The translations under genes and the position numbers were made by a program. A DNA stretch of 64,000 nt, from contig JABIPA010000063.1 in NCBI GenBank assembly GCA_018698675.1, forward strand, positions 20,851 to 84,850, given 5' to 3'. The stretch's first letter is position 1. Each line of letters starts with the position of its first letter. Shown here in pieces: positions 7,771 to 23,973 of the stretch. The notes below the pieces were generated by a model. It saw only the letters and a list, made by a program, of their open reading frames with translations, was not told where the DNA came from and did not search any database. Origin of the DNA: a bacterium (lineage in GTDB: Bacteria > Margulisbacteria > Marinamargulisbacteria > JABIPA01).

Positions 7771-10700
7771 ATGCCAGAAAAAACTGTTAAAGATTCTATT
7801 CAACTCATTCACAAAACATTCACTGATTTGTTAAATGATAAGTCAGAGACCGAGAAGTCCCATTCCATAATAGTTAGTTCATTAATTAAACCAAGCCAAA
7901 CAAAATATTATATCTTCGAATTAAAACCAAAAATTATACGACTCATCCAAAAAGACAATAAAGGTTTAAAGAGAGAATGGGAGTACGCGTTTAATTCCAC
8001 AGGAGATATTTTTCTAAATAATGTTAAAGTTTCCACTGAATTAAGCAATGAGTTTTCCGAGTTATTAGCCGACGTTTCTTTAGATATTAATAAAAATAAA
8101 GTTGAGGTTTTTAAGGCCGAATCCGTAAATTCAATTCCAAAAAATAGCACGGGCGTTATTTCTGCATTGTCTGGAAGAAGCGACAAATTCCTTCATATCA
8201 AACAGCTGTCAAAAGAAGAACTCAAGCAAATTTCTGGTGGAGTTGGCGGAATTGCTCCGGTTGGTTTAGGTGTTAGTCCTTCGTTAAGTCCATCTATGCC
8301 CGTCGCAAGGTCTACCCGAGCAGCATCCATGGATACAATGAGTATTCTGGAGCAAGTAATGGCAGACCTAGAACCTGATGCCCGACTCATTCCTACAACG
8401 AACGTCGAATTTTTGCCAGTTCTTTCTAGAAATATAGAAACATTAGTCAATTTTTTCAGACATACTCCAGATACACTTAGAGCCGATCATGATAATTGGA
8501 GCAGAGATATTCAGGTAGCAGCTGTTCCCCCAAGTCCAGCCCCAGAGGTCGCCGGTGGAATAGTCACTGGAGATGAAGAAGTTGGTTCAGACTTACCTCA
8601 TTTGGCTAGCACGACCGGGTTTAAGGAGTTAATCAGAAATTATCAGAAACAAAAGACAGACTTAAAAGCGATATTAGATGAAGCAACAAGTGGTGATGTG
8701 CATAGAGATGCAGGTGCTTTACAAGATAGGTTTGAGTCTGGCTTAAAAAAGCTAATTGATGCCGCTGAAACGATTCAGATAAAAATTGACATGTGGGTCG
8801 ATTTAAAAGGATTAGATAAAACGGATAGAAATTTTGAAAAGCTCAGAAATTTACAGTCTCATTTATCGTCAGATCTAAAACGATTATCCGTCGAATCGAA
8901 GAAATTAAGAAATGTCGTAACTGTTGAAAACCAAGTTATTTATGAACGGTTAGAAGACTTATCATTAATATCGGCGTCTAAGGTTACAAACTTTAATGAA
9001 GCCGTAGGAGCAGAAAGAGACGTTGTAGCGACTCCAGATGAACCTGTCACGGCAGATGCTCTTCCCAAGCCAAAACATGTTTTCGAAATGGAAGACACAT
9101 CTCGTCTTGAAACAGAGTTAAATCGATTTTTAGCAGGTGGAGTAGGCGCAAGAGAAACGCATGAGTTTAACCTTAGCAGTGCGGAATATAATCAAACGGA
9201 CGGGACGTTAACCGTCACATTCAATTCCGTGGGAGGTGATGCCCGACATAAGATTTTAGTCTTACCATTTAAAGCTATGAATCATTTTGAGTCTTTGGAA
9301 GAAGCTGAGTCTATTCTAAAAAAAGGGTCACTTGGCCCAAGTACCGAAGCTAGCGCATCTTTAGGATCTAATCGATTATTTTCTAAACTTATGTCTCAAG
9401 CGAAAGAAGAAATTGAGGCATTTCCTAGTTTTCGACACATGTCATCCGCAAAAAAGAAGCAATTATTATTGGGTAACTTTAATCGAAAATATAACACCTT
9501 GATAAAGTCCTTGAAGCCAATTGTTACCGAACAAATAAATAAAGAAGCCGGAGTAAAAGAAACACACGATTATGAAGTGATGGCAGCTGGAGGAAGAAAA
9601 GTAAATGTCGTAAGCCATAGTGGCGTAATGATTGGCTTTACTGTTAAACCTACTAGAAGACGGATGTTTTCAGGAGAGGACCTTTTAAAAAATCACACAT
9701 TTAGTCCAAGCAAAAGAGAAGATGGAACGTATCACATAACGGCTAAAAATGACGATTTATTAATTAAAGGCTTGAGATCTGACGGTAAAAAATCGATTCG
9801 AAAATTACAGGAACCAAGTCATATAGCTATTGATAACAAAAAAATGACGAGTTCTATGGTTCTTCGAACAGTCACCGAGATAAAAGATACAATTCCAAAA
9901 GAAATGTTCGACGAATGTCTTCCAAAAGAAACATCCATTTATAGCAAATTCAAAAACAAATTTTTTAAAAAAGCGACGCGTCATGCCGACTTCTATCCAA
10001 CAAAAACATGGACGAATATGATGAAAGACGACTTGAATCCAATGTCTCCAGCAAATAAGGGAATTGGAGGAAAAGTATTGTGGGGACTAAAGGCAGTCGC
10101 TTTTCCAATTACAATGATTGTAAATGGTATTGCCACTGGGATGGTTCATTCAAAACGAAACTGGTTTGGAATACGATCAACGACGAAAAAATTCAAGGAA
10201 AATTACAATACCATTTATACCCAATTAAAAGGTGAGGCGAATCGAAAGATGCCAGTTACTGTTGGAGAACGTGTTCGAGCGACTGCTCAAACAACGCACT
10301 CGACGGTTAGAACAATGGTTTTTTCCATCAAAGAAAGCTATTTCACGAGTATCAAGACAAAGTATAAGCGTGAACTTGAACGATTCGATAGTTCAGTTCA
10401 AGGTGCTGCCAATACATTGGGCATCGACCTTCCCGATACAGGGGATGATATAAGAGATCTTGAGGCCTTATTAGCGAAGAAGGATTATGCGAATTCTAAA
10501 GAAATGTATGACTCGATTAATACAAAACTATTAAAATCTCTCAAAAAACGAGAGGAAAAGTTAGGAGAGGTTATTCGACGTATGCAGAGTGAATTGCTTC
10601 CGATGGCGCAACGATTTGATAAAGATGCGTTTAAGGAAACCCTACAAGGAGCACGGCAATCGGTAAACGCGTTGACCCAACTTTATCTAACGTCTGCAAA

Positions 10701-13700
10701 TCAAGTTCAGTCAATTAAATCTGAGCTTATTAAGGGAACCGTAGATTTATTGAAAACGGATTTATTTGTTAAAAATTTAGATCTTAGTGGAGATATTGAT
10801 GACGATGTTTTGAACGCGAATTTACAGATTTTATTCCAAAAATTATCAGACTACGAGTCTACAAAAAGCGACTCTTCCGATATCGATCAAAAAGAGAAAT
10901 TGAAACAAATTTTAGATTATTTCAACACATCGGTTAAAGATAAATTAGAGGAACATGAATCGGAATTTGTGGAGCCATTTAAGCTAACATTAGCTGATAT
11001 TATGGAAACCTATCGAAGTGATAGAGAAGCCTTATCTGTAGAAACTGCGAATCCGTATCAACACATTCAAGAAAATGTTTTGTTTCAATTATCGCTATTA
11101 GATCAATATGAGTCGTTTACAGAAGGAATGACGGAACTTCCAAATTTAGTGATGAGAGAATTTGGTGCAATAGGAATGACTCCGCTACAAGTGCCTATTG
11201 ATCCAGATGAAATTAATCGGCGAATGGTCAATATTGGGAAGCAAATGTTTATATTGGCAAACGAGCCAATTTTAGACTCAGATAAATTTAGACAATTGGT
11301 TGCTCAGTTACGAGACCTTCAGGTCTTTATTCAAGTAAAGCTATTGGAAGTAGATAATTTAAAATTAGGGTCATCTGCTCAACGAGCGACGTTCGAAAGA
11401 ATTCGTCCAGAAATAGAACGATTAATGACGGACAATCAGACCAAGATAAAAGAGATGTTAAGCAAGTTTATGCTACTTCCAAAAATGATAGGGTCTGATA
11501 TTGACTTAGATGGCATCGATTCATTAGTAAGGCAAATCCAAGATTCGAGTTTTCATTTAGGAACAATGGAAGTGGGGGCTGAACATGGAGTGGATGACGG
11601 TATTCCTAGTCCTGTAGGCGATATTGTAGCAACACGTCCATCGGAAGGGCCTATTCGTGCGCCAAGTTTAGAAACAACGACAGCAGCAATATTAAGAGAA
11701 GATAGGCAGTTCTTTGGAGCTGTAAAAGACATGCAGTCTATGCTTGAAGAGGCAATGAAAACGACTGGATCAAAGACAAGAAAAAAATCACTGTCTAAAC
11801 TGTCTACTGCCTTTAGAATTGCCTTACTTTCTCAACGAAAAGATAAATTAGATGATTTTATGGCAATGTTGGCGAAAGAAGATTTAAAAACACATCATGG
11901 AGCGCTTAAACGGATGGATGGATTTTTGGAAAAAGCAACGCTGTTTAGCGCTCAATTTGTCGATAAATTTGGAACCGTGAAGTCAGAAAACTTACTAAAA
12001 ATCGAAAAACAATTAGCCGAGATGGGCTTAGAAAATTTCGAAGTCTATGACTACTTTTACAGTTCAATAAGTGGAACGATAGAAGTTGCAATCAATTCAT
12101 GGTCAACAGGATTTTTTGGGTCTAAAAAAGAGCCTCGTGTTTACAAACTAAAAATTCCTACACCAGCAATGGTGGAAGCTGGTGTTACGGAGTCAAATTT
12201 CGTACGACACATTGGTGCGTCGAAAAACGAAAAGTCAGCCATTAAAAAATTGGTTAAAGGGACGGGGTTATTAAATCCGTCTGTTTTTTCTAGGGGCTAT
12301 GAAGACTTAAAAACGTTTATTTCTGGAAGTGAGAAGACAAAAGTTGCATTGACGCTCAAAACAGAAGAAGAAATTGATGCGGAAAATGAAACAGCTTTAG
12401 CAAGAGGCGTGTCGTTAAGAGCAGATGCCTTGGTGGATGGCGAAAGGGACGATGAAAGTATTTCGTTGATTGGAGATATTTCCTTCGAAGATTTTATACG
12501 TGATATCCATCAATTTACGTTTTCAAATGCAATTGCTTGCGCGGAATTATTTAATAGTCCTCATCCGTTACCCGATGTTTTAACAGTATTCGATATGCCA
12601 TTTGAAGGGACATCTCTCGATGATTTTCCAAAGATTGTTGAAGATGGCGGTCAGAAATTTGAAATTACGGCAAACCAAGTGAATGATCAGGCGCCTATTC
12701 AGTTGGTTTTGAAAAAATTGGATAAATCGAATGGTGATACCGTTTTAGCAGAACAAAAAATCACATGTTATACAAAAGATACCGATGTATCTGATTTAGA
12801 AGATCACGTTGCAGAACAATTTATAAATATGATGACGAGCCGTAGTTACGAGTCTAATTTGAGCGCATCGTTTCATGGATATCTAGACACAAAAATTGCT
12901 TCAGATCATATAAAAAATGTTTTAGAAGAAGAATTGGTCGGAGGTGAATCTACGATTACTCTTACTCCATTTGAGCGAAAAGTCGCGAAAAAAATTAGAG
13001 AAATGCCAGAATTATTGAACAAATTAAGGCCTGAAGCGATTCAAAAGAAAGTGTCAGACGAAATAGAAAATTTAGTCGATCTTTTTGATGAGACAAGTAC
13101 AGTCGATCTAAAGTCAGTTTTGGATGGGTGTCCTCCTGAGATGGTTGATGGATTAAATGAGTTGATAGATGAAGATAGCACCACTTCGGTATTTGGCGAG
13201 TTAATAAATAACTCAGTAAATGAATTATCAACGAGTATAGGCATAAGTGAGTCATTCGACGATGCATTTGAACAATTCTCGAAGACAAAAAATCAATTGA
13301 AATTTGTTGCTGAAAAAATGATTCGAGAAAATTTGGGTACCGTTATAGATGATGATCCAGAATTTTTTTCGGAATCTTTAGAAAAAGTGTTGGCAGAAAT
13401 TGAAAATAAATTAAATACAATGTTTATTGGACACATAACAGAAAAGTTACTAAAAAAGGTCCCTGAGCTTGATTGTGATAGGGTTGTGGATCCTGATGCA
13501 TTGGACGTGAAAGTTAAATCACATATCGATTTTTTAAAAGATAGAACGGAGGCTGCTAAAAAGATAAATGCTCAATCCATGAAACTATTAGGGGAAAAAT
13601 CAATAAATGAAGAAGCCTTTAATTTATTTAGTGTACAGCACTTGGCAGAGCGATTAGGTGAAATAGATGGTGCTCATTCGGATATTGTATTAGACGATTT

Positions 13701-15582
13701 TTCTGAGGTAAAAGTAAAAACCTTTAAATTGAGTAGCTTGATACATCAGCGGGTACTCCAGGTTGCATCTGGCTTAGAAATGGCACTTTTTTCTGCTGTC
13801 AGAGGTGGTCGTGTTACGGTGGATTCTCGAATACCAATGAGTAGAATTTTAACGAATAAAATTTTACATGAGGAAACGTCTATTGATAAATTTAAAGAAA
13901 AGCTGGCGTCTCTAAAATCAAGCAAACCTTATTTGAGTGAATTACCTGATTCATATGAATTACTAGGAATGGCTTATTCAGATATTGATGAAGAATCGTT
14001 CGTCACGGATATTAGAATACTAACTGATTCTGGCGAAGAAAAATTAATTACTTTTGAACCAACCGAGCCCTATGACAAAAAAGCCTTTCGAACGTTAACA
14101 AAAATCCTCGCAAAAAAAGAAAAAAAGAAACCGTCCGTAATAGCATACGAGAAAAAATACCTAAAGCCGTCTATTGTCGAAAAATATCTACATATGGAGC
14201 CAGGCAGTTTACGAGGTCAAAAGATTGAACTTAAAGGTCCATCTTTTAGCAGGTCATATTATGGTTCGACGCAAATTGCTGGTATATCAATTCAGATTGA
14301 AGGAATGAGCAGTCCATCTATGATTGATTTTGACTCGTTATCAGAAGAAGATGTTTCTCTTAAAACTAATTTTGTTGATTTGTGGACAGCAGGAAAAAAA
14401 GCGATTGTTGAGGAAATTAAGGGCTTAAGTCAATGTAATATGAGAGACGATCTGTTTGGAGCAGATCCTGTTTCACAAGAAATTAAAGAGAGTTATTTAA
14501 CGATACATAATCGACGATTAAACTACGATATTGAACAAGCGTTAGACGGTATCTTTTCGGGAAAATTACAACAATCTATAGATGCCGTGAACAGAGGCCT
14601 TGAACATGATGTCCATGTATCTAGGACCGCTCCATCTCACGTTGTTGAAGTGGCCCAATCAGACAGAGACCGTTTAGATGAACTTGTTGAGCAAAAAACG
14701 AGAGAGTTTGAACTGTCTTATGAAAGAAATATTCAAGCATTTAAACGAGAAACAGATGCTAGAGCGCAGAAAATTTTGAACGAAATAACAGGCTATTCTG
14801 ATATAAAAATTGATCACGTCGTTTTAGATGAATCAGGACGAATTACAGATATATTAATAAGAAAACGAGATAGAGACGATGTAGAATCGTTTAGAAATAT
14901 AAACAGATTAAAGAGGTCTTTAAAACATACGTCTTTTAAAAATGATTTTCCTGGCTTTTTAGATGAAGTAAACCGACAGGTGAGTGAACAGTTTACGGCA
15001 TCAATAGCAACGTTTAGGAAAGAAGAATCTCTACAGGTTCAGGTGGCGCAGGTGTGTTCGGGCGTTAATTCATTAATTGCAAATTTGTCGCCGGACAAAT
15101 TTGATGTTTTCAATATGAAACCGGCAGTAAATGGATTGCCAACTGATTCTGAAAAACAAGCCGTTTTTGATAAATTAGAAGAATTTAAAGAAACCGTTTT
15201 TAGTCCAATTAACGAAATGTTAAGTCATTTACCGGGTGGATTAGAAGGTTCTATTCCGAAGGAGGATGTTGAATTCTTTTTTACGCATTTGGAATCAGGA
15301 AGCGCTTACGATGTTAAAAAATCTATCGAAAAAATGCCTATCGCGGTGCAGGTAATATTTAAACGATTAGCAGGGTTAAGGACTATGATTGGTGATAAAT
15401 TGAATCATTTGGAATCGGCATATGATTTAGATTATGAAGACATGCCAGATGGCACTGAATTTGAAGCAAGTAACTTTTTGTCAGGATTTGCAGCGAATGA
15501 AGGACCTGATTCTAAAAAAGATTCGATAATTTTAAAGTTTTTGTCTAAAAAATATGGGTCTTATTTTAATAGTAAGACTTAG
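7771..15582 (+). CDS. giant hypothetical protein, paralogue A (2603 aa), no recognisable domains
   Basis: Uninterrupted 7.8-kb ORF with an AAGAGGA SD 9 nt upstream of the ATG. Collinear with 15697-23680 along its whole length. Hydrophilic N-terminus with no signal peptide, and one conserved hydrophobic segment around aa 764-795. Confidence 0.88.
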   Translation: MPEKTVKDSIQLIHKTFTDLLNDKSETEKSHSIIVSSLIKPSQTKYYIFELKPKIIRLIQKDNKGLKREWEYAFNSTGDIFLNNVKVSTELSNEFSELLADVSLDINKNKVEVFKAESVNSIPKNSTGVISALSGRSDKFLHIKQLSKEELKQISGGVGGIAPVGLGVSPSLSPSMPVARSTRAASMDTMSILEQVMADLEPDARLIPTTNVEFLPVLSRNIETLVNFFRHTPDTLRADHDNWSRDIQVAAVPPSPAPEVAGGIVTGDEEVGSDLPHLASTTGFKELIRNYQKQKTDLKAILDEATSGDVHRDAGALQDRFESGLKKLIDAAETIQIKIDMWVDLKGLDKTDRNFEKLRNLQSHLSSDLKRLSVESKKLRNVVTVENQVIYERLEDLSLISASKVTNFNEAVGAERDVVATPDEPVTADALPKPKHVFEMEDTSRLETELNRFLAGGVGARETHEFNLSSAEYNQTDGTLTVTFNSVGGDARHKILVLPFKAMNHFESLEEAESILKKGSLGPSTEASASLGSNRLFSKLMSQAKEEIEAFPSFRHMSSAKKKQLLLGNFNRKYNTLIKSLKPIVTEQINKEAGVKETHDYEVMAAGGRKVNVVSHSGVMIGFTVKPTRRRMFSGEDLLKNHTFSPSKREDGTYHITAKNDDLLIKGLRSDGKKSIRKLQEPSHIAIDNKKMTSSMVLRTVTEIKDTIPKEMFDECLPKETSIYSKFKNKFFKKATRHADFYPTKTWTNMMKDDLNPMSPANKGIGGKVLWGLKAVAFPITMIVNGIATGMVHSKRNWFGIRSTTKKFKENYNTIYTQLKGEANRKMPVTVGERVRATAQTTHSTVRTMVFSIKESYFTSIKTKYKRELERFDSSVQGAANTLGIDLPDTGDDIRDLEALLAKKDYANSKEMYDSINTKLLKSLKKREEKLGEVIRRMQSELLPMAQRFDKDAFKETLQGARQSVNALTQLYLTSANQVQSIKSELIKGTVDLLKTDLFVKNLDLSGDIDDDVLNANLQILFQKLSDYESTKSDSSDIDQKEKLKQILDYFNTSVKDKLEEHESEFVEPFKLTLADIMETYRSDREALSVETANPYQHIQENVLFQLSLLDQYESFTEGMTELPNLVMREFGAIGMTPLQVPIDPDEINRRMVNIGKQMFILANEPILDSDKFRQLVAQLRDLQVFIQVKLLEVDNLKLGSSAQRATFERIRPEIERLMTDNQTKIKEMLSKFMLLPKMIGSDIDLDGIDSLVRQIQDSSFHLGTMEVGAEHGVDDGIPSPVGDIVATRPSEGPIRAPSLETTTAAILREDRQFFGAVKDMQSMLEEAMKTTGSKTRKKSLSKLSTAFRIALLSQRKDKLDDFMAMLAKEDLKTHHGALKRMDGFLEKATLFSAQFVDKFGTVKSENLLKIEKQLAEMGLENFEVYDYFYSSISGTIEVAINSWSTGFFGSKKEPRVYKLKIPTPAMVEAGVTESNFVRHIGASKNEKSAIKKLVKGTGLLNPSVFSRGYEDLKTFISGSEKTKVALTLKTEEEIDAENETALARGVSLRADALVDGERDDESISLIGDISFEDFIRDIHQFTFSNAIACAELFNSPHPLPDVLTVFDMPFEGTSLDDFPKIVEDGGQKFEITANQVNDQAPIQLVLKKLDKSNGDTVLAEQKITCYTKDTDVSDLEDHVAEQFINMMTSRSYESNLSASFHGYLDTKIASDHIKNVLEEELVGGESTITLTPFERKVAKKIREMPELLNKLRPEAIQKKVSDEIENLVDLFDETSTVDLKSVLDGCPPEMVDGLNELIDEDSTTSVFGELINNSVNELSTSIGISESFDDAFEQFSKTKNQLKFVAEKMIRENLGTVIDDDPEFFSESLEKVLAEIENKLNTMFIGHITEKLLKKVPELDCDRVVDPDALDVKVKSHIDFLKDRTEAAKKINAQSMKLLGEKSINEEAFNLFSVQHLAERLGEIDGAHSDIVLDDFSEVKVKTFKLSSLIHQRVLQVASGLEMALFSAVRGGRVTVDSRIPMSRILTNKILHEETSIDKFKEKLASLKSSKPYLSELPDSYELLGMAYSDIDEESFVTDIRILTDSGEEKLITFEPTEPYDKKAFRTLTKILAKKEKKKPSVIAYEKKYLKPSIVEKYLHMEPGSLRGQKIELKGPSFSRSYYGSTQIAGISIQIEGMSSPSMIDFDSLSEEDVSLKTNFVDLWTAGKKAIVEEIKGLSQCNMRDDLFGADPVSQEIKESYLTIHNRRLNYDIEQALDGIFSGKLQQSIDAVNRGLEHDVHVSRTAPSHVVEVAQSDRDRLDELVEQKTREFELSYERNIQAFKRETDARAQKILNEITGYSDIKIDHVVLDESGRITDILIRKRDRDDVESFRNINRLKRSLKHTSFKNDFPGFLDEVNRQVSEQFTASIATFRKEESLQVQVAQVCSGVNSLIANLSPDKFDVFNMKPAVNGLPTDSEKQAVFDKLEEFKETVFSPINEMLSHLPGGLEGSIPKEDVEFFFTHLESGSAYDVKKSIEKMPIAVQVIFKRLAGLRTMIGDKLNHLESAYDLDYEDMPDGTEFEASNFLSGFAANEGPDSKKDSIILKFLSKKYGSYFNSKT

Positions 15583-15696
15583 TACTAACTTATTTCTTAT
15601 CCAATAAGTTAAGAACCCTGAATTTTTGGGTATATAAATAGAAGACCACTATGATTATGTAGTTAGGTTAATGATTTAATACGTAGGAATGATTTT

Positions 15697-16185
15697 ATGG
15701 GGAAGGTAGATATTAAGCAGCTGATACTAGAGTTGCGAAAGAATTTTTCGGCAATAATTGAGTCTGATGATGATTCAGTTATTATTACCTCACTTCGTCA
15801 AAAAGATCAGCCATCCTATTATATTTTTGAACTTCAACCTAAACCTCTTTTAATTCGGTTAATGGAAAAAAAAATAGATATTTCAAAGAATGAATGGACG
15901 TATTCGTTTGGGGACAAAACCGATGTTTTCTTAAACGGACAAAAATGTTCGAATGCAATGTTCAAGGTTTTTACAGAGAGGATCAAAAAGGTGGCTTCGG
16001 ATATTTCAAAAGAATCGGTGGAAGTTTTTACTGCTAAAAAAGAGAAAAAAGAAAAGGTTTCGGACAATCCAAGAATGTTTTCTTCCACGTTTAATCAAAA
16101 TTATTCTAATGGGAAAAAAAGAGATTTTTCTAAAATTAAACAATTAACAGGAGAAGAAATGAAAAGTAAGGTGAGAAGTGTCTAA
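15697..16185 (+). CDS. hypothetical protein homologous to the N-terminal ~160 aa of paralogue A (detached N-domain of paralogue B)
   Basis: Aligns to residues 1 to ~200 of the 7771 protein (YYIFELQPK vs YYIFELKPK, NEWTYSF vs REWEYAF, SVEVFTAKK vs KVEVFKAES, IKQLTGEEMK vs IKQLSKEELK). Its stop overlaps the GTG start of the next ORF. Confidence 0.75.
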   Translation: MGKVDIKQLILELRKNFSAIIESDDDSVIITSLRQKDQPSYYIFELQPKPLLIRLMEKKIDISKNEWTYSFGDKTDVFLNGQKCSNAMFKVFTERIKKVASDISKESVEVFTAKKEKKEKVSDNPRMFSSTFNQNYSNGKKRDFSKIKQLTGEEMKSKVRSV

Positions 16186-19100
16186 TTCAGGTGGAATAGG
16201 TATAAGGCAATCCGTTACTCCTGGTAAACTTTCGGGTTCTTCCAAGTCAGCACCTGCGGGGAAGGTGTCTAATGGTGATGGGGACGTAGCTACCCAACTT
16301 GCTAAAGACTTAGATGGGTTAAAAATTTCAACTCCAGCTAACAGAGACTTTTTACCTGGATTGGAAAAAAACTTACAGGGATTGGTTGAATTTTTTGATC
16401 AAATTCCAGAAATGCTTAATGTTGATGTTCCAAGTTGGGAAGAGCCTCCAAGCATAAACATTACTCAGAAAAATTGCTCACCTGATGTTGTCGTTGTTTC
16501 TCCTAATCCTAAAGCAACAAATTTAAAAGCATCGTTCAAAGAATTACTTACAGATTATAAATCTGTTAAATCTGAGTTAAAAGAAATGCTTCAGGAATTA
16601 AAAAAGGGATCTGCAGATTCTGAAACTATCCAATCCGATTTTGAAGAAAAATTAGGAGAATTATTGGATTATGGAGAAGTAATTCAAGACAAAATAGATG
16701 CATGGCAAGAAAAAAATGAAGGAAAGGAAAAAACTTCCGTATTTAAAAAGATGAATGGGTTACAGGCAGGGCTAGCTTCTGATTTTGCCAGATTATCTAG
16801 GTATTCGAGTAAAATCGGGGATTCCGTTAAAACTAACAAAAGTCCTGTTTATGATAAATTAAAAAACTTTGCTGCCAATACGAGTAGTAAAGCTGCTGCT
16901 ACAAATAACGTTGTCTTAGCTCAGCCTAATGTAAATTCTTTACCAAACGATGTTCCAAAAGAGTCAGTTCTACCAGAAGCAAAAGATATTTTTAAGGTTC
17001 CTTATAAAGAAGAATTTGAAACTCAAATGAGTTATTTATTTGCAGACACTGCGGGTTCAAGAGAAACGAAAGAAATGCAAATAGACGGTTTGGAATATAA
17101 TAAAACGGATAACTCAGTTTGTATTCATATGGATTCAGTAGACGGGCTTAGAAGCAAGTCCGTTGAATTGCCGTTTGCAGATGGATACGAATTTAAGTCT
17201 ATGGAAGACGCTGAAAATATAATAGCGAAAGGTAGTTTAGATAGAGGAAAGAGTCCAAAAGAATTGTTGGGGTCGAAACGTTTATTTAATAAATTAAAAA
17301 ATCAAGCGAGTGCAGAGTTAGAAAAAATGCCAGGGTTTAAAAAAATGGATCCAGACTTAAAAAAGAGCCTTTTAACTCGAAAGTTTAATGAGAAATATCA
17401 AGCCTTAGTTAAGAATTTGAAACCGACTATTGTAGACCAACTAGAGCAAATTGATAAAACTGGAGAGGTAAACTTTGAACCAGTTGATAAGAATTTCAAG
17501 ATGACCTCAACGAAAGTTAAGACATCGTGGCTATCTTCGGGTCTTACTATTATTGCCGTCGGATCTGGTAAAAGCGGGATAAAGTTTAAAGTTACAACAA
17601 CTAAAAGAAAAGAATTTTCGTATAAGGATACGATAAAACAAAGAAGTTTTACCGCTGATAATCCTGTTTCAAAGGCCGATGATCCAACATCTGGAAGTAT
17701 GTCAGTTGTTGCAAAAGGAGGAAAACTTTTCTTTAAAGGAAAAGCAGGAGGTAAAGATAGGATAAAAGCCTTAATAGGATCAGATACAATAAACGTGACA
17801 TCAAAAAAAACAAAAAAGCAATTAAGTACGGTAACCGAGATAAAGTCGACGATTCCTAAAAAAATGTTTGAAAAGTGTTTGCCTCAACCCAAGTCAATGT
17901 TTTCTATAGCAACCCGTGTAGAAAATAAAGTTTTTAAAAAAGCGGAGAAATCTGTTGGTTTGACGAGGCCTAGTACGTTTGGGAACTTAATTAAAGAAGA
18001 TCTTTGGCCAACTTCTACTCAAAATAAAAGTATTCTTGGGAAATTAGGCGTAGTCGTTAAATTATTACCTAATCTTGCTTATACATTGCCTATAGGTCTT
18101 ATCGTGAATGCCGTTATAATGACTTCTGCTCATTCGAAAGGTGATTCTTTAAAACTTCAATCGACCATGAAATCGTTTAAAGGAAACTACGAGACCCTTA
18201 CAAAAAATCTGTTAGGAGAAGTAAGCAGAGGAACAAATACAAGAATAATGGAGATGCCAAAAGCTGTTGCTCAATCAACCACATCGGTAGGGAAAACGGT
18301 CAAATTTGCGATGGGGTCAGCATTTAAAAATATGATGAAAGATAAATTTAAAGAGCAAATGGAGCTTTTTGATAAGTCAATTCAAGAAACAACGAATGTA
18401 CTTGGAGTAGCAATTCCAGATAGTAAAGCAGAAATAGAAGAAATGGAAAGATTAATAGATAGTGGCGATTTTAAAAGTGCTGAAGATGTGTTCAAACTTA
18501 TCGATCAGAAACTTACATCTTCAATGAACAAACGAACCAAGGCCTTAGGATCCTTAATCGACCAGATGCAGGAAAAATTACTCCCTGCCGCTAAAGATGC
18601 CAGTAAATTAAAAAGTACATTGATCAATGCAAGAGCAACCGTAAATGAATTGACAGGACTGTATTTAAAATCCGCAAATTCGGTTCAATCAATTCGATCT
18701 GATTTGATTACGGGTACGGTAGAAATATTGAAAAATGACGATGCAATGTCGAAGTTAGGAAGTAAGGGAGCTGAAGGAAAGGTGAAGTCAAAAGTTAGCT
18801 CCTTTATGAAAAAAATGGAAGACTATGAGTCAAGGAAATCAGGAATGGATCCCGCGGAAAAGAAAGATGTTTTGAATTCTATAGTTTCAGAGTTTAAAGA
18901 TATAGAAGCTATTAGCGAAAATGGCGATAATTTTATGGATAAGAAAGAATTAGAAATAATTATGAATTCTTTGGAAGGCGTTATGAAACCTTTAGAAAGC
19001 ATAATGAAAACGTATCAATCTGATATCGAAGTATTTTCCAAAGAAGCGCCAAACCCATATCAAGGAATGGAAAGTAATATTGATTTTCAAATTTCTTTAC

Positions 19101-22100
19101 TAGAAGATGTAGACGCCTTTAAAGCAGAAATGAACGATTTACCAAATATGGTTGCAAGAGAGTTTAAAGGCAGTCCTCATAGTATTCCTCTCGACATGAA
19201 TGAAATAAATCAAAAAATGGTAAGCGTTCAAAAAGAAATGTTTGAGTTCTTAAACAAACCTGACAGTAAGGATGATAAGGCGGGGTTTGATAAAATTTTG
19301 ACAAAATTGAGAAATTTGGAGACGTTGACCCAAACAAAAACCTTGCAAGTGGATAGCTTGACATTAAATACAAAAGAGAAAAACGAAATTTTAACTAAGA
19401 TTAAACCAGAAATACGACGGCTTTTAAAAAATAATCAAGAAAATATTCAAGACATAATTGTTAAATTTATGAGTATGGATGTAGCCACCGTTTTAGACGC
19501 AAAAGGGGATGGGATTAATGCTATTGCAAGTGAAACACATGGATTAGCCGTAAAATCGGAAAGCTTAGGTGATTTTGGTTTACATGACGACATGACGACA
19601 ACCATGTTAAAAGGAGATATGTCGTTTGGAGCAACAGTCAGCGATATGTCCAATTCTTTAAGAGATGCAGCCGCTAAAACAAATTCGAGTTCAAGAAAAA
19701 AAGCGTTACAAACACTATCCAAATCCTTCGAAATTGCGATTCTTTCTCAACGAGAGGACAAACTACAAGATTTTATGAGTTTAATAGACTCTGAGATGTC
19801 AAAGACCAATAGTGGTGCTTTAAAAACAATGGAATTTTTTAAAGATAATGCAGGTTTGTTTAGGATGCAGTTTCTTGAAAAATTTGGGGAAGAAAAAGCA
19901 AATACGTTAAAGTCCGTTGAAAAGAGTCTTTCTGACATGGGTTTAAGAAATTTTGAAGTTTATGATTGTTTCGAAAACAAGACCACCGGTGCTATTGAGG
20001 TATCGATAAATACGTGGGAAAAAGGAACGCCTGAATCTAAAAGACAGCCGAGAATTTTGAAATTAAAACTTCCTCGAGTTGATGATAGCTTAAAATTTTC
20101 GAAGGAATCTTTTTTAGTAGGAAATGAGGACAAAAAAGCGAGTTCTAAATCAGAAACGAGGGGTACGTTCGCAAAAGATGAGTTTTATGGAAAAGTAGGA
20201 GTATCATCTGAAGATGAAAAAGCCTTGAGGTTTTTGTTGAAAGATAGGTCTAAAAAAGCAACTAACACTAAAGATATTTTAAATAAGAGTACCTACGCAG
20301 AGTTTTTTAACGACCTTAGCTCCATGCTTAATTCGAACGAAGATCCGACCGTCGATTTGGATGCGCCAAAACTTACTGTTGAAGAATTGGAATCTAGAAA
20401 TGAACAAATAGGTAGTGATAAAAAATTGAAAATGGAAGGTCTTTCAGCAACAGCATCCATGTCTGATTATTCGGGCGAAAGTTCTGAGTTCGGGGATGAT
20501 ATATCTGATCGAGGTTCCATAAATTCTGCGGGAGGCCTTTCAGTTCCTGACGATGAATTAGCCTCCGTTAGTTCGGAAGATTCGATGATATCTCAAATGC
20601 AGGCTGCCGCTGAAGCTAGCAATAAATTTTCTCTTGATACTCCGGAAACGGTTGCTCAATTATTTCAAACTGACAAACCATTACCAAAACATATCGCCTT
20701 GTTCGGTTTTCCGGAGGGTGGATTAAAATTGGGGGACCATCCGAAAGTAATAGACGGTGGAGACTTCACTGTCGAAATCGAAATGACTCAATCAAATGAG
20801 TCAGATCCAATTCAGTTAGTCTATAAAAAAACAGATAAAAAAACAGGTGTGTTACAAGAACAAGAACTAACCATTTACAACAAAGAAACAGCCGTCGATT
20901 CCATAAATGAAGATGTTGCCTCCCAATATGTCGATTTGGCAATAAGTAGAGACTATTCAGTAAATTTTGGAAGTGGAGGAGAAGGGTTTTATATTTCAGG
21001 GGGCGCGGCTAGAGCGATCAATGTCTCTATAGTTAGTGGCTTAAATAATCCAGATGTTTTTCCCGAGGGATATGATACGAGTTTGTCGGAATTTGAGTTT
21101 CAAGTAAAACAAAAAATACTTGAAACTCCAAGCCTGTTAGAAAAGATAACTCCTGGAGCTGCGCGTGAGAAAATAATAGATACATTAACGGATCGATTCG
21201 ACAATTTAGATCTATCTGAATTTCTAGAAAATTCAAATAGATTAATTGGTTCCGATGGAATGTCTTCTGGTGCAGATGGAATAAACGCCTCTTTTGATGC
21301 GTTCGAAACGTTAAGTACTGAATTCGAAGAAACTCTGGTTCAATCTCTAAAAGAAACCATCGGCACGGCAATCCAAGGAAATGAAACTCTTTTCGATGAT
21401 GAACTAGGTGAAAAAATGGATGAACTCAAGGTAACAATGAGAAAAAAGTTTTTAAGTTCGTTAGGGGCGGTTCATTTAGCTACTTTTCCATCGGTAGGCA
21501 CAAGTTTTGTTGAGAACGGGTCAACAATGGACAATAAAATGAAGGCTTTTTCAAAGGCATTGACTAGTTTTCACGCCGCTTCAAACGCATTGGAACAAAA
21601 ATCGATAGAATTATCGGGCGCCGGTTTATTTAACGAACAGACCCTTTTTAAAACTAGTTTAGCCGATAATATTGGTGAAATGTATGAATCTGAAGGGACT
21701 TCTTCAACAATAAGATCTGCTAATGGCGAAAATATAGAAAATTCATCATTTACATTATCGGGACTAGTTGCTCAAAAAACATTAGAGTTTTCGTCCAATT
21801 TTAGCCAAGATGTTTTTGGCGTATCAAACGAGCATGGTGAATACCCAACAGTTGGATTGAATCAAGACTTGGATTTTAAAATGGCGCAGACCTCCCGGGT
21901 ATTGAATACAAGTTCAAATATGGATAAATTGTCCGAAAAATTAACGAAGATGAAAAATTCCAAACCTCAAAAAGAGTATTTAAAAAATTTACCGGATAAT
22001 TTTAGCATCATAAGTATCCGAAATGACAGTATTGAAACTCCTGATAAAAGTGGAAAAATGGTGAGTAATTCTTACGTAGGAGGCATTCTTGTTTCAACTC

Positions 22101-23680
22101 CAGAAGGAAAGGAGATCTTAATAGAAATTGAGCCTGATGAAAATTTTGATGAGAATGTTTTAAAAGATTTAACAGGAATTTTGGAGAAAACAGAACGAAA
22201 ACCAACTGTTAAGAAATTTGAAGACAATTTTTTGAATAACGTAAATCTAGCATTAGTGTTAAACGAAGACCCAGATAGTTTTGGAATGCGAAACGCAAAA
22301 ATAACCATTCCAATTATGGATTCCGATGACAATATACAAGGCATATCGATAGAAATTGAACCAACAAAAGAACAGAAGAAAAGGGGAATGAAACCTACTG
22401 TAAAAGAAATAAAATTCAGCAGCATTCCATCAAGTATTAGAGAACAATTTAGTACAGAATTAACCAGTATGTGGAGCGGATGCATAAATGAAGAAAAAAA
22501 TAAGATAGTTGATTCGGTAGTCAGTCAATTAAATACGCGATCTGAATGTTTTGGATCCGATGCTGCAGGGCAACAAGCGAAAGGGATTTTTAATGATGCC
22601 TTACGTCAAAAAGTTTCTAGAGAAGTGGGTTATTCTATGGAGGCAGTCCAAAATCCTCAAGGTGGCCAATTGGAGAGTTTAATTGTCAGAGTTAATGAAG
22701 GGGTTCGTCACAATAGTATTGCTAAAAACACGAACACAGATAATTTGTTTCATACCGCTGCTGAGAGCAAAGAACGCGTATCTAAAACCTGCAATGAATC
22801 TTTAGCTCCACTTAAACAGAAATATGAAAATAAAGTAACCGAATTTAGGAAAACGGTACCCAAATTTGTTCAAGATAAAATGAAAGATTTAATAGGAGCT
22901 GATGTAAAGGTAGATTCTGTAAGGTTTGATTCAAACGGAAACGTCACTGATATTATGATCGTCAAAAAAAATAGTAAGGATGGGATAGATAGAGTTGTTT
23001 CGTTTAGAGATATAGGACGTGTTAAAAAGGGAGTGAAAGATAGCGCTTCGTTGAATGGAAGTTTCGACAAATTGTTAGACTCTATTAATAAAGGCGTTCA
23101 ATCTAGACAAGAAACAGCTACTAATGAAGAGCTATCAAACCTTGCTCTGGCGAAAGATAATGCGGAAGCTGCAATATTTACAACCCAGACTATAGCCGAG
23201 TTCAACGATGAATCGTTTAGCCTGTTTAAAATGAGACCCACGATCCCATCTGCCCCAACAAAATCTGAACTTGCCGAATTGAGATCTGGAATCGATGACT
23301 TTTCAGAATCTGTATTGACGCCCTTGAACGAAGCCTTAAGTGGATTAAAAGATGGTTTAGAAGGAGCAATTCCTCCTGAAAATAGAAATGAACTTTTTGC
23401 TTCACTAGAAAAGGGGAACTCTATGGAGATTAGAAGAGCTATAAATAAGCTACCTCCTGAACTTAAGATACTATTTAAGAGATTGGCGGGAGCTGTTCAT
23501 ATGATAAAAGAAAAAACAGACGCTCTATCAGAAGCCTATGGAATGTCTACAAATAACTTTGAAGATGGATTACAACTAGATGATGATTTCGTTACTAATT
23601 TTGTAGCTACTAACGGTGATGCAACGATCCTACTAGATTTAGCGAAGCATTATGGTACCGTTTTTAACAATAAAGACTAA
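16178..23680 (+). CDS. giant hypothetical protein, paralogue B body (2500 aa)
   Basis: 7.5-kb ORF starting at GTG 16178, preceded by an AAGGTGA SD-like sequence. An in-frame TGA at 16172-16174 fixes the upstream limit. Collinear with paralogue A from SGGVGG/SGGIG to the C-terminal FKRLAG block. Confidence 0.85.
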   Translation: MSNSGGIGIRQSVTPGKLSGSSKSAPAGKVSNGDGDVATQLAKDLDGLKISTPANRDFLPGLEKNLQGLVEFFDQIPEMLNVDVPSWEEPPSINITQKNCSPDVVVVSPNPKATNLKASFKELLTDYKSVKSELKEMLQELKKGSADSETIQSDFEEKLGELLDYGEVIQDKIDAWQEKNEGKEKTSVFKKMNGLQAGLASDFARLSRYSSKIGDSVKTNKSPVYDKLKNFAANTSSKAAATNNVVLAQPNVNSLPNDVPKESVLPEAKDIFKVPYKEEFETQMSYLFADTAGSRETKEMQIDGLEYNKTDNSVCIHMDSVDGLRSKSVELPFADGYEFKSMEDAENIIAKGSLDRGKSPKELLGSKRLFNKLKNQASAELEKMPGFKKMDPDLKKSLLTRKFNEKYQALVKNLKPTIVDQLEQIDKTGEVNFEPVDKNFKMTSTKVKTSWLSSGLTIIAVGSGKSGIKFKVTTTKRKEFSYKDTIKQRSFTADNPVSKADDPTSGSMSVVAKGGKLFFKGKAGGKDRIKALIGSDTINVTSKKTKKQLSTVTEIKSTIPKKMFEKCLPQPKSMFSIATRVENKVFKKAEKSVGLTRPSTFGNLIKEDLWPTSTQNKSILGKLGVVVKLLPNLAYTLPIGLIVNAVIMTSAHSKGDSLKLQSTMKSFKGNYETLTKNLLGEVSRGTNTRIMEMPKAVAQSTTSVGKTVKFAMGSAFKNMMKDKFKEQMELFDKSIQETTNVLGVAIPDSKAEIEEMERLIDSGDFKSAEDVFKLIDQKLTSSMNKRTKALGSLIDQMQEKLLPAAKDASKLKSTLINARATVNELTGLYLKSANSVQSIRSDLITGTVEILKNDDAMSKLGSKGAEGKVKSKVSSFMKKMEDYESRKSGMDPAEKKDVLNSIVSEFKDIEAISENGDNFMDKKELEIIMNSLEGVMKPLESIMKTYQSDIEVFSKEAPNPYQGMESNIDFQISLLEDVDAFKAEMNDLPNMVAREFKGSPHSIPLDMNEINQKMVSVQKEMFEFLNKPDSKDDKAGFDKILTKLRNLETLTQTKTLQVDSLTLNTKEKNEILTKIKPEIRRLLKNNQENIQDIIVKFMSMDVATVLDAKGDGINAIASETHGLAVKSESLGDFGLHDDMTTTMLKGDMSFGATVSDMSNSLRDAAAKTNSSSRKKALQTLSKSFEIAILSQREDKLQDFMSLIDSEMSKTNSGALKTMEFFKDNAGLFRMQFLEKFGEEKANTLKSVEKSLSDMGLRNFEVYDCFENKTTGAIEVSINTWEKGTPESKRQPRILKLKLPRVDDSLKFSKESFLVGNEDKKASSKSETRGTFAKDEFYGKVGVSSEDEKALRFLLKDRSKKATNTKDILNKSTYAEFFNDLSSMLNSNEDPTVDLDAPKLTVEELESRNEQIGSDKKLKMEGLSATASMSDYSGESSEFGDDISDRGSINSAGGLSVPDDELASVSSEDSMISQMQAAAEASNKFSLDTPETVAQLFQTDKPLPKHIALFGFPEGGLKLGDHPKVIDGGDFTVEIEMTQSNESDPIQLVYKKTDKKTGVLQEQELTIYNKETAVDSINEDVASQYVDLAISRDYSVNFGSGGEGFYISGGAARAINVSIVSGLNNPDVFPEGYDTSLSEFEFQVKQKILETPSLLEKITPGAAREKIIDTLTDRFDNLDLSEFLENSNRLIGSDGMSSGADGINASFDAFETLSTEFEETLVQSLKETIGTAIQGNETLFDDELGEKMDELKVTMRKKFLSSLGAVHLATFPSVGTSFVENGSTMDNKMKAFSKALTSFHAASNALEQKSIELSGAGLFNEQTLFKTSLADNIGEMYESEGTSSTIRSANGENIENSSFTLSGLVAQKTLEFSSNFSQDVFGVSNEHGEYPTVGLNQDLDFKMAQTSRVLNTSSNMDKLSEKLTKMKNSKPQKEYLKNLPDNFSIISIRNDSIETPDKSGKMVSNSYVGGILVSTPEGKEILIEIEPDENFDENVLKDLTGILEKTERKPTVKKFEDNFLNNVNLALVLNEDPDSFGMRNAKITIPIMDSDDNIQGISIEIEPTKEQKKRGMKPTVKEIKFSSIPSSIREQFSTELTSMWSGCINEEKNKIVDSVVSQLNTRSECFGSDAAGQQAKGIFNDALRQKVSREVGYSMEAVQNPQGGQLESLIVRVNEGVRHNSIAKNTNTDNLFHTAAESKERVSKTCNESLAPLKQKYENKVTEFRKTVPKFVQDKMKDLIGADVKVDSVRFDSNGNVTDIMIVKKNSKDGIDRVVSFRDIGRVKKGVKDSASLNGSFDKLLDSINKGVQSRQETATNEELSNLALAKDNAEAAIFTTQTIAEFNDESFSLFKMRPTIPSAPTKSELAELRSGIDDFSESVLTPLNEALSGLKDGLEGAIPPENRNELFASLEKGNSMEIRRAINKLPPELKILFKRLAGAVHMIKEKTDALSEAYGMSTNNFEDGLQLDDDFVTNFVATNGDATILLDLAKHYGTVFNNKD

Positions 23681-23697: not shown

Positions 23698-23973
23698 CTA
23701 ATGAAATAATTTAATTTTAATAGAGTCTTCAGTCATCTCAACTGTTTTTTGAAAGAAATTAGGGTCAAAGAAAACAATTGGAGATTCATCTTTAATTTCT
23801 AATTTGTAAGAACCGATGACAGGCTTTTCAACAGATAAAATCACTAAATTTTCCTTTGTCGATCCACCTTGAGTATCTAAGTTTAATCCAAATGAATCAG
23901 ATAAATTAAGTATTTCTTCTGGGCTTAACAGCTTGTGAGTATCTTTCATTTTGTTTTCTTTTTTGTCTTTCAT
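23698..23973 (-). CDS. small acidic hypothetical protein (91 aa)
   Basis: Strong AAGGGGGA SD about 7 nt upstream of the ATG. Convergent with paralogue B, 17 nt from its stop. No motif recognised. Confidence 0.55.
   Translation of the reverse strand: MKDKKENKMKDTHKLLSPEEILNLSDSFGLNLDTQGGSTKENLVILSVEKPVIGSYKLEIKDESPIVFFDPNFFQKTVEMTEDSIKIKLFH

Follow-up and report, generated by a model that had tools for sequence, protein, structure and literature searches.

A conserved gene split upstream of a predicted double-glycine processing site in paralogous giant genes of a Marinamargulisbacteria genome

Introduction

Two tandem giant genes, the paralogues A and B, lie on the same strand of a 64,000-nucleotide stretch of DNA from a bacterium of the lineage Margulisbacteria; Marinamargulisbacteria; JABIPA01 (the window: positions 20,851 to 84,850 of the forward strand of contig JABIPA010000063.1, GenBank assembly GCA_018698675.1). 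Both encode a similar N-terminal domain (N-domain). In A this domain is fused in frame to a cargo of 2446 amino acids (270 kDa), whereas in B it is encoded by a separate gene, Bn, which overlaps the cargo gene Bc by 8 nt. Comparisons with independently assembled contigs and with a sister species indicate that the split is real and conserved. It is probable that B represents a genuine and fixed gene fission with overlapping, translationally coupled open reading frames (ORFs), in which the N-domain would serve as a leader in A and as an escort in trans in B. The features of the locus are:

7771-15582, plus strand: paralogue A, 2603 amino acids, with the N-domain (about 155 residues) fused in frame (ORF and translation)
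7771-8241, plus strand: leader region of A (residues 1-157), comprising an α/β core, a linker and a double-glycine (GG) motif
8206-8241, plus strand: double-glycine leader motif LSKEELKQISGG of A (residues 146-157), predicted cleavage after G157
ATG 15697 to TAA 16183-16185, plus strand: Bn, the detached N-domain gene of paralogue B, 162 amino acids
15754-16041, plus strand: folded core of Bn (residues 20-115), from the AlphaFold2 model
16132-16182, plus strand: tail of Bn, KIKQLTGEEMKSKVRSV, a leader-motif remnant without I(-4) and GG
16169-16174, plus strand: Shine-Dalgarno (SD)-like AGGTGA, 3 nt upstream of the GTG of Bc
16178-16185, plus strand: stop/start overlap GTGTCTAA, 8 nt, between the Bn stop and the Bc start
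GTG 16178 to 23680, plus strand: Bc, the cargo part of paralogue B, 2500 amino acids, in the +1 frame relative to Bn

A and Bn share 41% identity (E 3e-22), which is far beyond chance, and A aligns with Bc from end to end with 31% identity over about 2600 columns (E 0). Bn terminates with ...IKQLTGEEMKSKVRSV, and its tail KIKQLTGEEMKSKVRSV aligns with IKQLSKEELKQISGG of A. Bc begins with MSNSGGIGIRQS, i.e. (M/V)SNSGGIGIRQS. Between EEMK and SGG, B is about 16 nt longer than A, and the difference between the two is thus not a simple one-base change. Searches of A, Bn and Bc against Pfam, NCBIfam and PDB sequences returned nothing significant. An initial sequence-only reading of the window had described an N-domain fused in A and detached in B, with an 8-nt stop/start overlap, an in-frame TGA upstream of the second start and an SD-like element at the boundary. 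All of these elements are present, the homology between the two forms is borne out by the alignment of A with Bn, and every frame, stop and start was found at the same position on re-reading.

Conservation of the split

The host genome is a metagenome-assembled genome of 74 contigs (91% complete, 35% GC), and split ORFs arise most often from single-base indels. We therefore considered that the split might be an error of sequencing or assembly, or that a very recent frameshift had inactivated B and made it a pseudogene. The exact 162-residue Bn protein is encoded on eight public contigs from several sources (NCBI, JGI/IMG, ENA and Logan), the longest of which spans 262 kb. A separately assembled JGI metagenome contig, Ga0233437_1130206 (1185 nt), is 100% identical to positions 15652-16836 including the junction. 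There is no homopolymer at the site, and the difference from A amounts to about 16 nt instead of 1 nt. Both ORFs are intact and conserved, and the 2500-codon frame of Bc stays open.

Further support comes from a sister pair on a single 14.8-kb JGI contig (14,805 nt), which encodes P0004 (162 residues) and P0006 (2478 residues). P0004 is 71% identical to Bn and ends with KNKMRNV, while P0006 starts with MSNGGIGVRQS and is 57.5% identical to Bc overall. The break between them falls at the same residue as the break between Bn and Bc, although protein identity in this comparison is only 57-79%. P0023, a variant of P0004 from another assembly, also has 162 residues and 71% identity to Bn. The C-terminus of P0006 is identical to a fragment on contig C114 of the same-genus genome G001, where it is followed by the same 91-residue convergent ORF as in the window, and P0004/P0006 therefore belong to a same-genus sister species. 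The orthologue of A in G001 (contigs C23 and C17; 73% and 62% identical) is also fused. Taken together, these comparisons exclude an assembly artefact or a recent pseudogene for practical purposes, and we consider either barely credible.

The individual parts of locus B have diverged to different degrees. The Bn core, with 79% identity to its sister, is the best-conserved part, followed by the linker with 60% and the leader-motif remnant with 47%. Bc and P0006 agree at about 70-77% of positions in their N-terminal halves; over much of the C-terminal halves (residues 1300-2400), the identity falls to 30-45%. In A, on the other hand, the leader motif is invariant between the species, and the G001 orthologue has exactly the same 19 residues KFLHIKQLSKEELKQISGG. 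Further B-type loci were sought in several ways: a first metagenome scan with P0004 gave no match, a second one recovered only a contig of the window's own population, a scan of genome contigs returned only the A orthologue of G001, and a search for further, shorter B-type N-termini found nothing.

Two additional observations concern this region. Paralogue B evolves faster between the two species than A, with 57.5% identity for Bc versus 73% and 62% for the two fragments of A. The convergent 91-residue ORF at the end of paralogue B (23698-23973, minus strand) has no family match, but its position and length are kept in the sister species (G001:C114; L020:627-902, minus strand), which suggests that it is probably a real gene linked to the giant pair.

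Translation across the Bn/Bc junction

A TGA in frame 2 (16172-16174) precedes the GTG of Bc, and the Bn and Bc frames could be joined only by a frameshift within the 11 nt from 16175 to 16185, which contain neither a homopolymer nor a slippery sequence. An overlap of 8 nt is the minimum that is possible for a +1 downstream frame. Among overlapping long frames of the host genome, only overlaps of 4 nt (n=122) and 1 nt (n=44) are more frequent than those of 8 nt, with 38 candidate pairs. The SD-like AGGTGA is a perfect 6-nt complement of the 16S rRNA tail ...GATCACCTCCTTTCT encoded on contig C42, and in this genome such motifs are found upstream of starts more often than in the background (34% vs 9%).

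The junction of the sister species can be deduced from its protein ends (NV* and MSN), assuming the same overlap. Its predicted DNA is AATGTCTAA[T/C], in which AAT GTC TAA is read in the +1 frame as ATG TCT AA(T/C), i.e. Met-Ser-Asn. The sister species would thus share the 8-nt overlap but use ATG in place of GTG as the start codon, and the overlapping Bn codon would have changed from Ser (AGT) to Asn (AAT) while a start codon was kept. This argues for a real initiation site, because a frameshift site would not need a start codon.

An alternative is a programmed +1 ribosomal frameshift between 16175 and 16185 that yields a single Bn-Bc giant, as in prfB. The layout does resemble prfB, with an in-frame TAA, an SD-like AGGTGA upstream and a downstream frame in +1, and this frameshift-compatible arrangement is conserved in the sister species. 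However, re-pairing in the +1 frame is not possible for any candidate P-site codon (AGA to GAA, AGT to GTG, GTC to TCT), and the spacing between SD and shift codon is 5 nt, in contrast to 3 nt in prfB. The frameshifted product, which would be recognized by the junction-spanning peptide KVRSVNSGGIGIR, would also lack a correctly spaced GG motif because five extra residues intervene. Finally, other pairs of this family in the host genome use a different frame or a gap (contigs C21, C71 and C18). We therefore regard a programmed frameshift as very improbable, and Bn and Bc are likely translated as two polypeptides by termination-reinitiation coupling.

Genuine fission with overlapping genes was the first of three explanations that the sequence-only reading had offered, and it is the one that the independent contig and the sister split support. 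In the comparison of orthologous loci that it had proposed, the sister of B is split at the same residue and the G001 orthologue of A is fused. A sequencing error is contradicted by the eight contigs, the identical JGI contig and the sister split, and the programmed frameshift by the lack of re-pairing and the kept start codon.

A double-glycine leader motif behind a folded domain

The N-domain appears to be built from a folded α/β core and a disordered linker, followed by a classic double-glycine leader motif. The conserved core comprises about 100 residues (...S.IITN...YY..L....L.E....Y.F....LN....F..K......VxVF). The leader region of A matches the profile of this core family with an E-value of 5.8e-32. 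An exhaustive profile search of 1.84 billion representative proteins gave only 15 matches, from which P0013 and P0014 were discarded as repetitive false positives. In every fused member inspected, a stretch of 30-45 poorly conserved residues separates the core from [LS]xx[ED][LI]xx[IV]xGG. The motif is present in A and in 10 further fused relatives, one of which (G014:C92) has GA for GG, and the cargos behind it range from about 40 to about 2450 residues:

A: LSKEELKQISGG, followed by VGG; 2603 residues
G001-A: motif identical to A; truncated by contig ends (1267 + 1309 residues)
P0012: LSNEELKLIVGG; 238 residues
P0016: LSEDDLRQIVGG; 373 residues
P0017: LSAKELKTITGG; 692 residues
G014:C9: LTASELKSVIGG; 174 residues
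G014:C92: LSPEELSKIIGA; 227 residues
G014:C25: LSQSDIAQIIGG; 710 residues
G002:C161: LSESDLSSVVGG; 252 residues
G008:C5: LSRQDLANIYGG; 801 residues
G011:C431: LTEEEIKKISGG; 1913 residues

A short core peptide after the GG is found only in G014:C9, G014:C92 and P0012, while A, G011:C431, G008:C5 and G014:C25 carry cargos of 540-2450 residues. The hydrophobic residues of A at positions -4, -7 and -12 are I, L and L. The GG-leader models of NCBIfam (TIGR01847 bacteriocin_sig, TIGR03949, NF047798 and TIGR04149) match family members weakly, with a best E-value of 0.0015, as expected for a motif of only 12 residues. In a regular-expression scan of the whole host genome, A was the only fused-domain match (N-proximal and non-housekeeping); one other N-proximal match resembles what we take to be a housekeeping LpxD-type N-terminus. 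In the structure of PCAT1, the residues at -4, -7 and -12 together with the GG dock into the C39 peptidase (PMC6959990). The A sequence had been quoted in the sequence-only reading, but the reading did not see that LSKEELKQISGG conforms to a double-glycine leader motif.

Bn departs from the GG-leader consensus: its tail LTGEEMKSKVRS carries K at -4, and RS stands where the GG would be. The motif is still recognizable in its first half (IKQLTGEEMK in Bn vs IKQLSKEELK in A), but it continues with SKVRSV and a stop where A has QISGG, and Bc starts with MSN-SGG-IGIRQS. Thus, B is broken 2-3 residues upstream of the GG dipeptide, which forms residues 5-6 of Bc. Degenerate leader motifs also occur elsewhere in the family, on contig C61 (8413-9009, minus strand) and at L071:318-800 (plus strand; G002:C205). 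They read LDYEELNQVSGH and, with Cys-Cys for Gly-Gly, LSKEELDKLTCC, and may be decaying or alternative processing sites.

The AlphaFold2 model of Bn, based on a 45-sequence alignment, has a mean predicted local distance difference test (pLDDT) score of 82 and a predicted template modelling (pTM) score of 0.72, with core blocks at 88-95. In the predicted topology, a helix leads into five antiparallel strands, after which come a long helix and one last strand. The model shows the linker as disordered, with pLDDT values under 50 for residues 126-135, and places a short helix over the leader remnant (residues 152-159). Foldseek searches of the PDB with two models gave no match at E <= 0.001, and in the ESM Atlas scores stayed below 0.9 and template modelling (TM) values below 0.5. 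The family is mostly basic, with a median isoelectric point of 8.65 and a value of 9.5 for Bn.

Stand-alone members and their large partners

The core profile detects 14 copies in the host genome. Across the class, 40 of 55 genomes contain matches, among them 14 of the 18 high-quality ones, with 1-12 copies each. Most family members are ORFs of 110-200 residues, and many are located directly upstream of large orphan genes. Apart from Bn and its orthologue, stand-alone members end right after the last core strand. In addition to Bn, four further small copies in the host genome directly precede a large gene on the same strand:

Contig C21: 1-nt overlap (TAGTG) at L031:2256-2262, minus strand; partner of 692 residues starting with VSGGVAGV
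Contig C71: 4-nt gap; small gene L032:2111-2521, minus strand; partner L032:28-2103, minus strand, 691 residues
Contig C18: 48-nt gap; partner of 1429 residues
Contig C70: overlap; partner of 567 residues

The partner on C71 matches the Pfam family IpgD (PF05925, 55 bits, above the cut-off) and has a Ser/Thr/Asn-rich N-terminus. IpgD is a family of phosphoinositide-phosphatase effectors of Shigella and Salmonella. In other genomes, a large ORF begins -4 to +20 nt after the small gene at about 10 of 27 loci. These ORFs encode at least 320-513 residues before they run off the fetched DNA, and no Pfam domains were found in them. The partners share no detectable homology with one another. The genes downstream of the copies on C31 and C54 were rejected as partners because they are housekeeping genes (a glutamate synthase domain and an FtsJ/S4 methyltransferase).

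These data bear on the earlier suggestion that the N-domain is a separable adaptor or chaperone-like module. A separable module that works in trans is supported at the level of the family by the stand-alone copies in 40 of 55 genomes, many of them upstream of large genes, which indicates that the N-domain can exist as a separate protein; the function in trans itself stays an inference. The location of stand-alone members upstream of large orphan proteins would be consistent with an escort role of Bn in trans.

Several further arrangements were noted within the family. The start VSGGVAGV of the C21 partner resembles the SGG[VI]xG that follows the leader in A and opens Bc. Tandem two-domain proteins of about 260-330 residues are encoded at L010, L011, L050, L059, L062 and L064, and three adjacent copies form an array at L043 (G013:C29); both forms are found in several families of the class. 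Another type of partner that recurs is a conserved hydrophobic protein of about 217-239 residues, the start of which is overlapped by about 26 nt if the longest start is taken (L046, L048, L053, L057 and L067, also L055 and L068, in one genome group).

A candidate exporter

The host genome contains one Peptidase_C39 (PF03412) gene, which is the middle gene of a three-gene operon on contig C65:

L024:5950-11946 (C65, about 73950-79950), minus strand: operon of HlyD, C39-ABC and second ABC genes
C65 operon: HlyD-like adaptor, TIGR03794, 221 bits, above the cut-off
C65 operon: peptidase-containing ABC transporter (PCAT), 716 residues (C39, ABC_membrane and ABC_tran), TIGR03796, 843 bits vs a cut-off of 853
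C65 operon: second ABC protein, 965 residues, TIGR03797, 619 bits vs a cut-off of 709, by far the best match

The PCAT on C65 has Cys21 and His94. The operon corresponds to the three-gene cassette linked by Haft et al. (2010) to the long NHLP and Nif11 leaders, and leader conservation was argued to reflect handling by the transporter (PMC2887384). Neither an NHLP nor a Nif11 precursor was seen among the host proteins scanned. The sister species (G001) and the genome G014 also have the PCAT and its cassette. Across the class, a C39 peptidase is found in 13 of 55 genomes and in five of the six with verified GG-type fused members (hypergeometric p of about 0.002, to be read with the caution that relatives are non-independent and the ascertainment of GG-type members was not exhaustive).

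Proposed origin and function

We propose an A-type giant as the ancestor, in which a linker joined an N-domain core to an LSxxELxxIxGG leader motif and a cargo of about 2450 residues. This ancestor would have been split into two genes by some 16 additional nt that lie 2-3 residues upstream of the double-glycine site and that created the TAA stop of Bn as well as a start codon for Bc, located 5 nt upstream of the stop in the +1 frame. In A, the N-domain would act as a long folded double-glycine leader that is cut after G157 by the C39 exporter. In B, the leader would be pre-detached and the cleavage residues lost, with Bn acting in trans on Bc as a partner-binding escort. The core would thus bind or escort its large partner, to which it is covalently joined in A but only non-covalently associated in B and in the other pairs, and the giants would be exported. 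Our confidence decreases along this chain, from separate coupled polypeptides to C39-dependent removal after G157, to escort by the core and finally to export.

The direction of this change deserves consideration, because the split arrangement could be ancestral for both paralogues and A a secondary fusion. Split pairs are indeed the commonest family arrangement in the host genome and in the class. On the other hand, among stand-alone members only Bn and its orthologue keep the linker of about 30 residues and the half motif IKQL[ST]xEEMK, which are otherwise found only in GG-type fused members from several families of the class, and Bc still begins with SGG. The retained linker and half motif in Bn, together with a remnant that is only 47% identical between species while the motif of A is invariant, point to a fused GG-type ancestor of B. 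A secondary fusion is thus distinctly unlikely. One further B-like protein, P0010, is truncated at 96 residues, before the junction region.

The N-domain could also be an inhibitor or immunity-like module that silences its partner in the producer cell, being covalently linked and removed by GG cleavage in A and bound non-covalently in B. The family evolves fast and has multiple copies, its tandem arrays and two-domain forms resemble polyimmunity loci, and the IpgD/SopB-like partner suggests an effector. After PCAT cleavage, moreover, the leader stays in the cytoplasm (PMC6959990). Against this, the small gene lies upstream of its partner, and one conserved small domain is combined with partners that have no detectable mutual homology, which fits a general adaptor better. 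Immunity genes are usually located downstream of their partners. We consider the inhibitor model unlikely, albeit less so than a secondary fusion.

Several observations weigh against the proposed fission and leader/escort model. Concerning translation, the AGGTGA is only 3 nt away from the GTG of Bc and is probably not conserved in the sister species, where the exchange of V for M would give GATGA. The exporter cassette does not adjoin A and B but is located on a different contig. G002 has a GG-type member, yet no C39 peptidase was found in this genome, which is 89% complete. Stand-alone pairs also occur in high-quality genomes without any C39 peptidase (G013, G024, G027 and G028), and the stand-alone function can therefore not in general be that of a leader for a PCAT. 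The fold offers no functional clue either: the best VIA-align match is the hypothetical Vibrio cholerae protein VC0508 (2w56_B; Z 7.3-7.6, with a root-mean-square deviation of 3.5 over 108 residues at Z 7.6), followed by FcpB (Z 7.2) and polo-box domains (Z about 5), and all these scores are below the level that would mean more than a common arrangement. The main difficulty for C39 cleavage and export of the giants is the size of the cargo. Characterized PCATs handle small cargos, and in a limited literature search export of a 2450-residue cargo by a PCAT was without precedent. To our knowledge, a 270-kDa cargo would need a threading mode that is known only for C-terminal-signal substrates of type I secretion systems (T1SS). 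The cavity of PCAT1 is estimated to hold one cargo of about 66 residues (PMC6959990).

Comparison with known systems

The closest parallel to the N-domain is provided by the NHLP and Nif11 (N11P) leaders, which are likewise long, folded and related to a stand-alone small-protein family (PMC2887384; PMC12537861). In both cases, family conservation ends at the Gly-Gly cleavage motif. The HlyD, C39-ABC and second ABC proteins of the host have their best matches to TIGR03794, TIGR03796 and TIGR03797, and the relatives G014:C9 and G014:C92 carry cargos of about 40-60 residues, similar to precursors of bacteriocins or of RiPPs (peptides made by the ribosome and modified after translation). However, models for nitrile hydratase alpha (TIGR03793) and Nif11 (TIGR03798) had no match in 21 members, with one member giving an insignificant nitrile_alph match (E 0.089), and Pfam searches yielded no relationship either. 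The core is α/β rather than helical, the leader is about twice as long, and cargos reach 700-2450 residues. No modification enzymes are found nearby, the cassette is unlinked, and most N-domain members are stand-alone proteins in genomes without a C39 peptidase. The N-domain may nonetheless constitute a third protein-like double-glycine leader family after NHLP and Nif11, with covalent and trans modes and with large-protein cargos including an IpgD/SopB-like one, but this is a tentative proposal that we hold with less confidence than the fission itself.

The motif LSxxELxxIxGG and a host PCAT with Cys21 and His94 also resemble the GG-leader systems of bacteriocins, microcins and competence peptides, such as ComA, LagD, CvaB and PCAT1 (PMC6959990, PMC6363468). 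Canonical leaders of this type differ in that they comprise 15-30 unstructured residues in front of cargos below about 10 kDa, whereas the motif of A is located behind a folded domain of about 115 residues and before a 270-kDa cargo, and Bn lacks the -4 residue and the GG.

With respect to the split, B is comparable to coupled fission (Rosetta-stone) pairs, which show a same-strand stop/start overlap with an SD-like element inside the upstream gene; here, the fused (A) and split (B) forms coexist as paralogues. Different from such pairs, the break in B falls 2-3 residues before a predicted processing site, and the split thus mimics the processed state at the genetic level.

Class I chaperones of type III secretion systems (T3SS) and the Eag/DUF1795 and DUF4123 proteins of type VI secretion systems (T6SS) show similarity in layout, since an α/β protein of about 110-160 residues precedes a large orphan gene, often with an overlap, and one N-domain partner is IpgD/SopB-like. 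T3SS class I chaperones are acidic, in contrast to the mostly basic N-domain family, and neither T3SS chaperones with the CesT/SycE fold nor T6SS chaperones were among the top 50 fold matches of the N-domain. Fused N-domain members furthermore carry a GG site of the T1SS/PCAT type. A T3SS chaperone/effector relationship, which the IpgD-like partner and Ser/Thr-rich partner N-termini had suggested, is not supported, given the basic family, the GG site in fused forms and the flagellar type of the T3SS genes. The only T3SS core genes seen in the host look flagellar, as they are neighbours of FliM, FliN, an FlhG-like gene and a small gene for a FliA-like sigma factor. This flagellar-type export cluster on contig C74 (L038:10648-19416, minus strand) comprises FliM, an FlhG-like ATPase, FliN, FliP, FliR, FlhB, FlhA and the sigma factor. 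No flagellin (PF00669) was found in the 91%-complete genome.

Conclusions

Gene fission with overlapping ORFs is ordinary. What is unusual at this locus is that the split lies just upstream of a predicted processing site, that the leader-like family is undescribed and that very large proteins are attached to it or adjoin it. No description of giant GG-leader proteins or of the N-domain was found in a limited literature search. Should the functional inferences fail, an ordinary and well-documented gene fission would remain.

Double-glycine leaders and peptidase-ABC exporters are regarded as small-peptide machinery for bacteriocins, RiPPs and pheromones. The locus described here connects a canonical cleavage motif with an uncharacterized folded domain and with cargos that are hundreds to thousands of residues long. 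A and B, one with the domain fused and the other with it detached, form a conserved natural pair, and this makes testable both a leader that acts in trans and the handling of giant proteins by the C39 exporter class or by another route. If the N-domain does prove to be a third leader family, A and B would represent a natural side-by-side experiment on how a leader or escort works in trans. Moreover, the N-domain offers a first handle on a small-protein family that is present in most genomes of a little-known class of uncultured marine bacteria.

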